Source of the DNA: Promethearchaeota archaeon
GTDB lineage: Archaea > Asgardarchaeota > Lokiarchaeia > Sigyniarchaeales > SOKP01
Assembly: GCA_013375475.1 (NCBI GenBank)
Contig: JABXKD010000063.1
Span: 1-22,088 of the forward strand
Direction: 5' to 3'
DNA: 22,088 nt
Shown: in pieces, positions 15,783 through 18,614 of the stretch
Position numbering within the stretch: position 1 is the stretch's first letter
How the letters are laid out: every line of letters begins with the position of its first letter
Notes under the pieces: model-generated
The model's database searches: none
What the model saw: the letters and a program-made list of their open reading frames with translations, nothing else
What the model was told of the DNA's origin: nothing
Position numbers and translations under genes: made by a program

Positions 15783-16811
15783 TTAATATTCTAACTTTTC
15801 ACCTAAAGCAAGTCTCGCGAGGTCACTAATAAAATAAGATTTCAATCCCTTAGCAGTAACCTTCCGATCTAATGTGTCTTTACACATTGGACAATTGAAT
15901 ATACAGACCTCAGCACCATAGTCTACCATGTCCTGAACGTTATCATTTTGAGTTTTACGAACTAGATTTTTGTGACCCCTTGGTGCAAAAGGTGCAGCGC
16001 AACATATACCGTTTTCTCTATCAAATTTCCTAGCAACCCTTTCAACCCCGATAAGTTCGCATATGTTATCAAGAATCTCATCAGTTTCAGGTACATAACG
16101 ATTGGAGCAGTTACGCTGATAAGCGGCTTTTAAGTTTAATTTCTTGATATCAGATTCGTGATCTTTTAGATAATTATATACATACTCAAAAATATGAACG
16201 GGTTTAAAAGGCACTTCAAGGTTGTTCCTTTGACAATATGAGGTATACAATCCATAGCACTCGTCGTGCCAACATATGACCTCAGTATCCTTATTAACAC
16301 CTGTTTTTTTGAAGTTTTCAAGAATCAACGGAACTCTTTCTTTGATGATGGAAGGTTTTGCTAAGTGTTGATATACTAATTGACAAAAGTAATGTAAACC
16401 ACCAACTGATTGTAGATCATCAAACATTGGCCCTTCTATTTCTTTTGCATTCATTTTAGGGAACGCACACTTATCTAAAATTGGTCTTTCAGGATCAATC
16501 GGGCGCGGTACAAATTCACTCTTTGCTCCATACCCATCGATTGCATTTTGAGCAATTGCAGGTGATACATTTTGAGAATTGTATTTTTCCTGCAACTCAT
16601 TTATTTTGTCAAAAGGATGTGAATGATATGGACAATACTCGTCACAAGAAAAACACAGCATACAATCCTTTAATATGCGACAATCCTCATCTTCATTTAT
16701 CAATTTAGTAACTTCCATCTTAGCTTCGTTAATATTCTCAAATTTGATCCATTGACATTTCATCATACAAGCAACAGTTTCACATTCTTCACAATGCGAT
16801 TTATCAAACAT
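15783..16811 (-). CDS. Fe-S binding protein with CCG domain (heterodisulfide reductase-related), paralog B
   Basis: CEECETVACMMKC, CMLCFSCDEYCP, CWHDECY, YQRNCSNR, ICCAA, NCPMC. Colinear with 14666..15694. Confidence 0.85.
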   Translation of the reverse strand: MFDKSHCEECETVACMMKCQWIKFENINEAKMEVTKLINEDEDCRILKDCMLCFSCDEYCPYHSHPFDKINELQEKYNSQNVSPAIAQNAIDGYGAKSEFVPRPIDPERPILDKCAFPKMNAKEIEGPMFDDLQSVGGLHYFCQLVYQHLAKPSIIKERVPLILENFKKTGVNKDTEVICWHDECYGLYTSYCQRNNLEVPFKPVHIFEYVYNYLKDHESDIKKLNLKAAYQRNCSNRYVPETDEILDNICELIGVERVARKFDRENGICCAAPFAPRGHKNLVRKTQNDNVQDMVDYGAEVCIFNCPMCKDTLDRKVTAKGLKSYFISDLARLALGEKLEY

Positions 16812-16907
16812 ATTTATACAGCTTTTAATTATTTTGAATAATTATTATATATTTTTTTTATTAGTTGTAATCACACTACAACCATTATTAATTTTATTTT
16901 CTTAGTA

Positions 16908-17452
16908 TTATTCTTCAATAGTGAATTCCCAAGCGCAATAATAGTTGTCAGGATGTTGATCAGGAGGGCAACATATGCATCTAGTCTTAATTCTAGGATC
17001 TATGGTTTTAGCGAAATCTTCATATTCTATAATTCCTACGGGTTTACAAGGAAAATCCGGAAGGTTTCTTCTTTTTCTTGCATACTGCACCCGGCAATTG
17101 TTCATCCGAAACACACACCGATTCTCAGAAATCTTAATTATTTCTTGAACATTTATATTGGCATAAATTCTATATCTCAACGCTTTAATTAATCCCGAGA
17201 TTCCTCCATTTTCTGGAATGTTGAAGCGACTCATTATTCGTTTTGCTTCAATTACCGTAAACCTTTTCCACTGCGCAGCATCAAGTTCAATGGCTTTGTC
17301 CAATCCAAATTCTCTTTCAACTGCTTGAAACCAGGTTTTGGGGTTAAAGTATTTCTTTAATTCTTTCCATCAATGGCCAACCAGTTTTTAGATAAATCTT
17401 CAATGTAGTTTATTAATTCATCTCGCGTTAACTTTTCTAAGTCCTCTTTCAT
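16908..17452 (-). CDS. DUF6125 family protein (V4R-like, Cys-rich), interrupted by a 29-nt insert; 171 aa if the insert is removed
   Basis: Segment 1 (17452..17366) is MKEDLEKLTRDELINYIEDLSKNWLAIDG. Segment 2 (17336..16908) is TWFQAVEREFGLDKAIELD...CRVQYAR...PCKPVG...CICCPPD...YCAWEF. Joined they give the family motif NWLAxDGxWFQAVE. Confidence 0.82.
17336..17364 (-). other. Candidate 29-nt archaeal BHB-type intron or frame-disrupting insertion
   Basis: AGAATTAAAGAAATACTTTAACCCCAAAA (boundaries can slide within A runs). Contains the hairpin TTAAAG-AAATA-CTTTAA and an in-frame TAA. Removal restores GAT GGA ACC TGG. Confidence 0.55.
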
Positions 17453-17555: not shown

Positions 17556-18614
17556 TTATAAAATATCTTTATCATCGAGAGGGATGTGGATAGCAAATTC
17601 ACAACTTTCATCCCCGTTTAATAAAGTTTTCAAAATTTCGATTCGAACGGGTTTCTTTAAAATACCTTCCCATATCTGTCTATACCATCCGGCACTACAA
17701 TTGCAAAAAGTCGTAGAAATTCCCTCGTCCAAATATTCACGGACCAAAGAGCAATGACAATAGTTGCGTTTCTTTTCATCTTGAGTTTTTGCATTTTTGT
17801 AACCCTCTAAGTTATATGGTATTTTAGTTGTATAGATCACACTCCCTCTTCGCGTAGGATTTTCATACCAAAGATAATCTTTTTGCATTTCCTCTACAAC
17901 TGCATCTATGCTTCCAGATACTACATAAATATCTCTTAATTTATCAATTCGCTTTTGAGAAAATTCGTGAGCACAATTAGACAAAATCTCATATTTTTGA
18001 TAATTATCAGCAACTATATCCAATTCTTTTAAGACGCTTTTTACCCATTGATTTTTTTCTTCTCGTGAAGTCTCAACATTAAACAATTCTTTATATTTCA
18101 TTATATTTTTAGATTTTTCTTTATCATCTAAGACTTTATCTAAGTTTTTTTGCAAATTATTGTCCCATAAATGAATTATTCCTTGGATCTCTACACGGTT
18201 ATTTTCGGAGTCAGTTTTGCCAATTTCTTGGAAAACTAGTCGAATTTTAGTTGTCCCTAAAACAGCATGTTCACTAAAATAATTAAAAAGTTTTTGAGAA
18301 GTTTCACTTAGCATATTATAGGATCCTTGATGAGATATTGATAATACTTCAACATTTTCAAGCGTTTTAACATTAAATCCTTCTTCATTAAAATTTTTAT
18401 CAATAGGGAGGCATAAATCTATGTCCGATCCCCCTTCACTATAAACGCCATAATCAATAACCACTATAATTGGATTGGGAGGGAAGATTATAAAACTTTC
18501 TCGAAATTCTTCAATTTTCGAAGGTACATCTTTTAATTCTCCCCGAAAATTATAATAGGCTACGAAAATTGGCTCAATTTGTTTATGAATAATTCCTAAT
18601 TCTTTTAGAGACAT
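17556..18614 (-). CDS. GyrI-like small-molecule-binding domain fused to a DUF6144 (V4R-like, Cys-rich) domain
   Basis: N-terminal GyrI-like segments (DIDLCLPI, EVLSISHQGSYNML...LFNYF). C-terminal CAH, YCHCSL, TFCNCSAGW, PVRIEILKTLLNGDESCEFAI. Confidence 0.75.
   Translation of the reverse strand: MSLKELGIIHKQIEPIFVAYYNFRGELKDVPSKIEEFRESFIIFPPNPIIVVIDYGVYSEGGSDIDLCLPIDKNFNEEGFNVKTLENVEVLSISHQGSYNMLSETSQKLFNYFSEHAVLGTTKIRLVFQEIGKTDSENNRVEIQGIIHLWDNNLQKNLDKVLDDKEKSKNIMKYKELFNVETSREEKNQWVKSVLKELDIVADNYQKYEILSNCAHEFSQKRIDKLRDIYVVSGSIDAVVEEMQKDYLWYENPTRRGSVIYTTKIPYNLEGYKNAKTQDEKKRNYCHCSLVREYLDEGISTTFCNCSAGWYRQIWEGILKKPVRIEILKTLLNGDESCEFAIHIPLDDKDIL

Follow-up and report, generated by a model that had tools for sequence, protein, structure and literature searches.

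Introns of the bulge-helix-bulge (BHB) type are cleaved after the second base of each bulge, a cut position reportedly set out by Marck and Grosjean in 2003. The described example inside an archaeal coding sequence is the intron of the cbf5 pre-mRNA, which is said to have been studied by Watanabe in 2002, Yoshinari in 2006 and Yokobori in 2009. It occurs in Crenarchaeota (Desulfurococcales and Sulfolobales), where it is spliced by a hetero-oligomeric endonuclease, EndA, and its distribution is patchy, with gains and losses (PMC2738675). In PMC7714728 it figures as the only BHB intron reported in archaeal mRNA besides a case in a 5' untranslated region (5'-UTR) of Haloferax; likewise, the literature we searched, supplements excluded, held only cbf5 as a coding-sequence BHB intron plus the Haloferax case, and no report of mRNA introns in Asgard archaea, some of which may be listed in the supplement of a 2026 preprint (10.64898/2026.10.13.758758). 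Here, we describe a 29-nucleotide (nt) insert that splits a gene of the DUF6125 family in a 22,088-nt stretch of DNA from a Promethearchaeota archaeon (contig JABXKD010000063.1), an Asgard lineage; this whole stretch is called the window below. We consider it likely that the insert is a BHB (tRNA-type) mini-intron of the DUF6125 pre-mRNA, removed by EndA together with RtcB.

Like the cbf5 intron, the DUF6125 intron would be of the BHB type, lies in a coding sequence and would have to be removed for the protein to be made. In contrast to cbf5, it resides in a gene of unknown function and in an Asgard host (mesophilic, 32.5 % GC), it is always 28-29 nt long, only 6 of the 100 species orthologs that were read contain it, it is accompanied in some relatives by a free-standing LAGLIDADG gene, and its splicing is a prediction from sequence. 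With archaeal tRNA introns, of the hBHBh' or the relaxed bulge-helix-loop (BHL) form, it shares the geometry, the predicted cuts and the size range, and the genome of the window contains tRNA introns of 15-30 nt, for instance one of 30 nt in tRNA-Ala(UGC), whose processing enzymes would be the same ones acting on DUF6125. The differences to tRNA introns are that the host RNA is an mRNA, that the exonic half of the motif must also serve as codons (GAU GGA A / CN UGG), and that a plausible DNA-level route of spread is visible. If our reading is true, the DUF6125 introns would represent a second family of coding-sequence BHB introns, and the tRNA-splicing machinery would also process mRNAs in the lineage closest to eukaryotes. 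Furthermore, as gene callers annotate such interrupted genes as broken, some Asgard "pseudogenes" may be intact.

In the following, G000 denotes the genome of the window (3.92 Mb in 288 contigs), other G-numbers further genomes, L-numbers loci, and X-numbers sequencing samples represented by their Logan contigs. The DUF6125 gene is encoded on the minus strand, and both flanks of the insert are otherwise intact. Exon 1 (17365..17452) begins with the ATG at 17452 and encodes 29 residues, MKEDLEKLTRDELINYIEDLSKNWLAIDG, ending in ...SKNWLAIDG, followed by the first base of a Thr codon; the RNA cut is predicted after 17365. The insert (17364..17336) introduces an in-frame TAA at 17359-17357 and in addition shifts the frame. 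Exon 2 (16908..17335) contributes the last two bases of the Thr codon and 141 residues; here the downstream frame resumes with (T)WFQAVEREFG... and runs to the stop codon at 16908-16910. Excision of the insert yields a continuous open reading frame (ORF) of 171 aa (29 + 1 + 141), in which the junction GAU GGA A|CC UGG encodes D-G-T-W and the predicted product reads ...NWLAIDGTWFQAVER... across it. Deletion of 29 nt is possible in three equivalent registers (AA microhomology), among which the BHB rule picks 17364..17336. The Pfam profile PF19620 (DUF6125) matches both pieces, with positions 2-24 on the N-terminal and 26-164 on the C-terminal one (E 1e-69), so that the codon spanning the break is its sole loss; exon 2 lies above the gathering score with 234 bits (cut-off 27), while exon 1 alone reaches 17 bits. 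Thus, the first-pass annotation of this DNA had correctly described a 29-nt insert in an otherwise intact DUF6125 ORF and the 171-aa frame resulting from its removal, but its designation as a putative sensor gene finds no support, as DUF6125 has no known function.

Independent assemblies show that the insert is real DNA. In X1, which may be the source sample, and in X2, a second sample from the same study, Logan contigs cross it without gaps. In X4, from another study, a contig of a strain with 22 differences in 910 nt also crosses it and shows no indel at the insert, and in X6, from a third study, a contig begins within it, at 17355. X4 and X6 share the same single substitution within the insert, at 17361, which falls in the one unpaired column of the inner helix described below. 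The same samples also contain contigs of ~89 % identity that read ...NWLAIDGT straight into WFQ, so intronless relatives live alongside. The 29-mer is unique in the G000 assembly. A templated origin, which the first-pass annotation had raised as a way to refute its proposal, was rejected by a k-mer search, since no copy of at least 17 nt exists elsewhere in G000 and the next longest exact match is 16 nt.

The insert is a member of a family of 28/29-nt inserts at exactly the same site. Scanning a degenerate pattern of both exon flanks plus a gap across one genome per species identified two other species with a 29-nt insert at the DUF6125 site, and across JGI metagenomes ten contigs; the remaining pattern matches (7 of 9 loci in the genome scan, 16 of 26 in the metagenome scan) were unrelated and outside DUF6125. 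When the 154 genomes of the order were all searched at the protein level, 101 proved to have a DUF6125 ortholog, and the junction was read in 100 of these, G000 included; the ortholog of G109 (L266), broken by stops, was left out. Uninterrupted junctions, reading NWLA[IH]DG[TLC]WFQ, were found in 94 orthologs, and an insert in six, namely in G000, G141, G135 and G144 of the window's genus and in G116 and G105 of another genus. Altogether, 13 distinct insert-bearing junction sequences were obtained, all interrupted between the codons for ...NWLAIDG and TWFQ... All of these inserts measure 29 nt except that of G135 (L193), which has 28 nt and lacks a base of the hairpin loop. Cutting after the second bulge base (removal of alignment columns 26-54) restores the frame in 13/13 and produces D-G-T-W, the residues found in most intronless orthologs of the genus.

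On the minus-strand RNA, the insert and its flanks fold into the elements of a BHB motif. The central helix H pairs the exonic AUGG (17367..17370) with the intronic CCAA (17338..17341) by two G-C pairs and one U-A pair, plus an A.A mismatch. It is flanked by two bulges of 3 nt each at the right spacing, AAA (17364..17366; predicted cut between 17365 and 17364) and AAC (17335..17337; predicted cut between 17336 and 17335). On the intron side, the inner helix h' with its loop (17342..17363) comprises the pair G17363-C17342, an A17362.C17343 mismatch, the unpaired A17361 and a 6-bp stem (17360-17355 with 17349-17344) enclosing the loop 17354-17350. On the exon side, the outer exon-exon helix h is formed by a 5' strand (17371..17378: GGCCA, two unpaired U, G) and a 3' strand (17329..17334), where C17334 pairs with G17371 and UGGUU (17333-17329) can pair with GGCCA (17378-17374). 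All helices that the first-pass annotation had named are indeed found in the sequence, and the minimum free energy (MFE) structure of RNAfold contains the 6-bp hairpin, the UGG/CCA pairs of the central helix and the GGCCA/UGGUU outer helix. As a control, cutting after the second base of each bulge reproduced the 30-nt intron that aragorn assigns to tRNA-Ala(UGC) in G000, whose motif has 4/4 central pairs, three pairs in h' and two in h.

More telling than the single fold is its conservation, which was assessed in a 72-column alignment of the 13 sequences (column = 17390 minus window coordinate). The exonic AUGG is invariant. Its intronic partner (columns 20-23 with 49-52) is CUAU or CCAU in eight sequences, giving 4/4 pairs, and CCAA or C(U/C)AC in five, G000 included, giving 3/4. 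The 5' bulge is AA(A/U), with AA in columns 24-25 of all 13; the 3' bulge is AAC and once AUC, with C in column 55 of all 13 and AA in columns 53-54 of 12. The h'-closing pair next to the 5' bulge (columns 27-48) is A-U in five sequences, G-C in five, U-A in three and unpaired in none. We scored the motif by a strict geometric rule, counting the central pairs out of four and the contiguous pairs in h and h' next to the bulges, and called canonical those with 4/4 central pairs and at least two contiguous pairs in h or h'; by this rule, eight of the 13 are canonical BHBs and five are relaxed. Paired cells amount to 90.3 % versus 82.4 +/- 1.1 in shuffles and the covariation score to 0.278 versus 0.123 (0/500 shuffles as high in either case), figures whose independence is overstated by these shuffle controls because the 13 sequences are related. 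Kinship does not affect the three pair types at one position, nor the controls with partners slid by one column, in which pairing dropped to 51-56 %. Two-sided changes were found in 16 cells of five pairs, and h' is paired in 93.3 % of cells. Furthermore, RNAalifold, which was given no structure, recovered the same central and inner helices, and its consensus also has the outer exon-exon helix proposed in the first-pass annotation (columns 12-16 with 57-61), the one also seen in the MFE structure of G000. This covariation indicates that the intron structure has been maintained in evolution. The expectation that relatives might carry inserts at the same site with covarying stems was thus borne out by 12 other distinct sequences, whose inner helix covaries.

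The enzymes required are encoded by G000, which has RtcB (560 bits) and two EndA paralogs (PF01974). One of 200 aa (C215) keeps the catalytic His and has the crenarchaeal 3p1z_B as best PDB match (E 2e-35), while the other of 202 aa (C133) has Asp at the position of the catalytic His and matches best to 1a79 (E 6e-22); this would fit a pair of a catalytic and a structural subunit of the alpha/beta type. Asgard EndA is described as a broad-specificity type (PMC5829648). With aragorn, we found 29 tRNA genes in G000, of which 14 contain introns of 10-77 nt, several at non-canonical positions. These many interrupted tRNA genes agree with the tRNA-gene interruption described in the 2026 preprint, according to which tRNA introns were gained repeatedly in Asgard archaea by a route of arrival that is unknown (10.64898/2026.10.13.758758).

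In our model, the transcript would fold such that the exonic AUGG pairs with the intronic CCAA in a central helix of four positions and three pairs, flanked on opposite strands by the 3-nt bulges AAA and AAC, with the h' hairpin on one side and the exon-exon helix h on the other. A two-subunit (alpha/beta) EndA would then cut after the second base of each bulge, and RtcB would join the exons to GAU GGA A|CC UGG, giving rise to the 171-aa protein, while the 29-nt intron would be released, probably as a circle. The reading of the insert as an EndA/RtcB-type BHB intron, put forward in the first-pass annotation, is thus supported by the same-site inserts, the eight canonical motifs among 13, the covariation, the EndA and RtcB genes, and selection on the exons. 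With regard to the latter, none of the 13 alleles with an intron has lost the ATG, any of the 29 exon-1 codons or part of exon 2. In exon 2, omega has a median of 0.06 and a maximum of 0.119 over the 31 intron-bearing pairs for which dS could be computed, versus 0.091 in intronless pairs, and exon 1 has a pN of 0.121 versus a pS of 0.608, which indicates that both exons are under purifying selection. If exon 1 were not joined to exon 2, selection on its 29 codons would be difficult to account for. For this as well as for the distance and tree work below, 16 intronless loci missed by the extraction pattern were left out, all 16 of which had been scored as uninterrupted.

Several observations weigh against this interpretation. 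Foremost, the copy in G000 is itself a poor representative of its family. Its motif is relaxed, with three of four central pairs and a single contiguous pair in each of h and h', a score (at least 3/4 central pairs and at least one pair in each flank) that 2.6 % of 20,000 random 29-nt G000 windows attain by chance; 14.6 % of these windows reach three of four central pairs and 0.7 % the canonical class. At least two contiguous pairs in a flanking helix are found in 12 of the 13 family members but not in G000, where only G17363-C17342 and G17371-C17334 adjoin the bulges; beyond these first pairs follow the 6-bp stem of h', after a mismatch and a bulged base, and a 5-bp helix of h, after two U. 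Because the flanking helices of G000 miss the strict definition, the claim rests on family homology and not on the G000 motif itself. The fold of the G000 insert as a single sequence is no better than chance (z-scores of -1.19 for 91 nt, +1.27 for 58 nt and -1.20 for 72 nt). The first-pass annotation was therefore right to caution that the BHB is imperfect, as G000 has one of the family's most degenerate copies. Second, the selection signal of exon 2 may largely predate the arrival of the intron block in the G000 lineage, as exon 2 has a different history (see below). Third, an ortholog at E <= 1e-40 is absent from 12 of 41 genus relatives (G000 excluded), some of them 98-100 % complete, so that DUF6125 is dispensable in the lineage and a dead copy would be tolerated; in G109 (C53:26088-26432), the ortholog is in fact truncated and broken by TGA and TAA, showing that DUF6125 can decay in this group. 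Fourth, the sequencing runs listed for this DNA include no RNA run.

Finally, mRNA introns are not common in G000. In a motif-free census, ORFs delimited by stop codons were taken from G032 (0.40 Mb) and G008 (1.49 Mb) and compared with G000 by tblastn, followed by a displaced-end search. Among the 1,452 ORFs of these relatives with a G000 match (109 + 312 + 1,031), the DUF6125 insert turned up twice and no other insert of 10-100 nt did, in a search that would miss introns shared with G008 and in-frame stop-free introns; the other candidates imply 0, +/-1, +/-2, 4, 5, -25 or -89 nt.

The main rival to a functional intron is that the G000 insert belongs to a genuine intron family but can no longer be spliced, which would make the DUF6125 gene of the window a recent pseudogene. 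The structure lost would be that at the A.A mismatch by the 3' bulge, the A.C in h' and the U.U in h. In its favor, G000 scores lowest in the family (3/4 central pairs, h' = 1, h = 1; z = -1.2), all five relaxed copies lack a homing-endonuclease gene nearby, as expected late in a homing cycle, DUF6125 is often absent in the genus, and other genes of G000 are broken as well, one by an in-frame TAA on C285 and ~25 by small frame shifts or stops. However, the CCAA strand has been kept in three diverged lineages (the window, L156/L163/L188 and L185) in which the exons are intact, and neither exon of the window bears a second lesion. The strain seen in X4 and X6 shows no difference in the DUF6125 coding bases from 16936 on, compared with one in the intron and three in the 103-nt upstream spacer, and an EndA of the broad-specificity type described for Asgard archaea (PMC5829648) would argue against the loss of a relaxed substrate. 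We therefore regard a decayed, unspliceable copy as unlikely, and infer that the insert is cleaved and its exons are ligated in vivo and that the relaxed copy of G000, with its A.A mismatch and weak h and h', may still be a substrate.

Translational recoding, in which the ribosome would bypass or shift over the 29 nt (by a hop from GGA or by a -1 shift) and no RNA splicing occurs, appears very improbable. A stop codon soon after the Gly codon and inside a hairpin superficially resembles the arrangement in gene 60 of phage T4, and the insert of G000 is open in the downstream frame (WKELKKYFNPKT). Yet its 3' end offers no matching GGA/GGN landing codon, and a slippery site of the form X XXY YYZ is missing from GAU GGA AAG. 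The ~10 residues that a -1 shift would append are unconserved among the 13 inserts, whereas what is conserved, base pairing and BHB geometry, would not be needed for recoding. Even less credible is a split gene, whose exons would be translated as two polypeptides that assemble. Exon 1 has its own ATG, and a stop lies inside the insert in every family member, but no in-frame start precedes TWFQAVE..., the first being a TTG at 17303, 11 codons in, although this segment is under protein-level selection; moreover, the conservation of the RNA pairing would be left unaccounted for if a 32-aa peptide were the partner. The last alternative, a one-off inactivating or templated insertion or an assembly artefact unrelated to introns, was considered in the first-pass annotation and might have been suggested by a single-sequence fold no better than shuffles and by the uninterrupted state of the first 19 orthologs looked at (15 from the genus and 4 from the order), but it is essentially excluded by the homologous inserts that 12 further distinct sequences carry at this site, by the presence of the insert in independent assemblies from three studies, and by the lack of a template for the 29-mer elsewhere in the genome.

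Returning to the DUF6125 intron, its history is not that of exon 2. The closest relative of the window's exon 2 is that of G133, which is intronless and has 36 differences in 426 nt (8.5 %), but exon 1 of the same two alleles differs at 27 of 87 positions (31 %). Conversely, G000 and the intron-bearing G141 have no differences in the last 27 nt of exon 1 and the first 17 nt of exon 2. The same mosaic is seen in L166, whose exon 2 falls within a tight intronless clade (6-11 % distance) from which its exon 1 is 26-28 % away, and in L212, compared with L207. Thus, three alleles (window, L166 and L212) cluster by exon 1 with other intron-bearing alleles and by exon 2 with intronless neighbours. 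On the exon-2 tree (nt 31-414, 90 rows; L014 with a short exon 1 and L161 with a short exon 2 were left out of trees), the intron state needs 10 changes, at least seven of which are forced by supported branches, and a single clade for the 13 intron-bearing rows is rejected (AU p = 0.0002, at a cost of 430 log-likelihood units). For exon 1 plus 30 nt (only 117 columns), six changes of state are needed, and a single clade is not rejected (p = 0.21). A shared structural constraint on ~10 exonic bases could add to the clustering near the junction, but not account for 27 identical bases. These data point to a history of exon 1 and the intron apart from that of exon 2, probably by recombination between alleles, and render the gains of the DUF6125 intron traceable allele by allele. 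At the 3' end of the gene, a region comprising the end of DUF6125 and the spacer to the gene of a CCG-domain protein (16777-16935) is ~10 % different in the X4/X6 strain, the rest of the gene being identical, which suggests a second recombination breakpoint.

A candidate for the driver of this mobility lies directly upstream in some relatives. In intronless loci, the preceding GH2 gene and the DUF6125 ATG lie ~37 nt apart. A LAGLIDADG gene occupies this slot in four distinct intron-bearing loci, ending 6-63 nt before the ATG. It is open in L182 (1733-2668, minus strand), L201 (2046-2885, minus) and L161 (406-1341, minus; L161/L173), in each case directly upstream of DUF6125, and contains in-frame stops in L167 (1044-1973, plus; L167/L179). 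The three open genes encode proteins of 280-312 aa with two motifs and with matches to Pfam LAGLIDADG_3 and LAGLIDADG_1 above cut-off. No such gene was found in intronless loci, although 62 of the 94 were covered by only ~210 nt upstream, corresponding to the last 50-65 residues of the gene. All four distinct endonuclease-linked introns are canonical, and all five relaxed ones, including that of G000, are without an endonuclease gene, a pattern that would fit a homing cycle ending in orphan introns. The G000 locus and the rest of the window hold no trace of a LAGLIDADG gene beside the intron, so that the G000 copy is at most an orphan of a homing-type element.

Homing of BHB introns has precedents. 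LAGLIDADG enzymes, for example of the I-DmoI type, are encoded by crenarchaeal rRNA introns. As in DUF6125, those introns combine a BHB motif with a homing endonuclease and home into a conserved target (PMC4496867, PMC2602781); there, however, the endonuclease ORF lies inside a long intron, whereas the DUF6125 intron of 29 nt is devoid of an ORF, and any endonuclease is encoded separately, upstream of DUF6125. This arrangement is more reminiscent of collaborative homing in phages, in which a free-standing endonuclease targets the insertion site of an intron, the intron shields its carrier, and both are copied (PMC3984707, PMC2790892). As with those phage group I introns, a free-standing endonuclease gene adjoins an ORF-less intron in relatives of the window, but the DUF6125 intron would be spliced by proteins via its BHB motif and not by itself, and its host is cellular and archaeal. 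In addition, G000 itself lacks the endonuclease gene.

By analogy, we tentatively raise the possibility that Asgard archaea harbor a two-part selfish element, in which the mini-intron provides the "immunity" and the other half is the free-standing LAGLIDADG endonuclease. The latter might cut the conserved intronless sequence encoding NWLAIDG|TWFQ, and the broken allele would be repaired by copying in the endonuclease gene together with a new exon 1 and the 29-nt BHB intron, with the tRNA-splicing enzymes of the host rendering the insertion harmless. G000 would since have lost or replaced the endonuclease gene, leaving an orphan intron that the cell must keep splicing. If true, this would provide a route for tRNA-type introns into protein-coding genes of the closest prokaryotic relatives of eukaryotes. 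In any case, the mosaic alleles and the adjoining LAGLIDADG genes make the arrival of BHB introns at new sites directly testable.

In the window, the slot between the GH2 gene and DUF6125 is instead filled by a gene of 352 aa (17556..18614, minus strand) with a weak GyrI-like N-terminus and a DUF6144 C-terminus. It is found upstream of DUF6125 in the window, L156/L188, L163, L166 and L185, all of one intron subtype, and in none of the 32 intronless loci for which 1.5 kb of flank or more was available, and blastn breakpoints indicate that exon 1, the intron and this gene move together as one block. Its product was considered as a nuclease, but no such signal was obtained: Pfam gave the weak GyrI-like and DUF6144 matches, NCBIfam none, PHROGs one weak match of unknown function, and the PDB a weak effector-binding domain. 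The gene is thus probably a hitch-hiker on the recombining block.

Other occupants of the same slot were also encountered. In L175 (9843-10489, plus strand), genes of a MazE-like antitoxin and of a PIN-domain protein fill it, and L169 has only the 3' end of this segment in common. Elsewhere in G000, two LAGLIDADG-like ORFs exist on C244 (60464-60742, minus; 54904-55146, plus), a two-motif ORF of 556 aa and another of 197 aa that begins at a motif; they are unrelated to the DUF6125 locus, and no interrupted gene was seen beside them.

Apart from DUF6125, ~25 genes of G000 show a frame shift of 1-5 nt or an in-frame stop with respect to G008 (on C214, C44, C222, C267, C234 and others), three of which cluster on C214; these could be pseudogenes, assembly errors or programmed shifts. 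Among the 17 ADH_N matches in G000, none is split by an intron, two are cut by contig ends, and one carries a point nonsense codon. The latter, a gene of the zinc alcohol-dehydrogenase family at C285:1237-1521 (minus strand), contains a single in-frame TAA (...PEDN*ILVKV...) where a sense codon is expected from relatives, which is a point nonsense mutation and not an intron.

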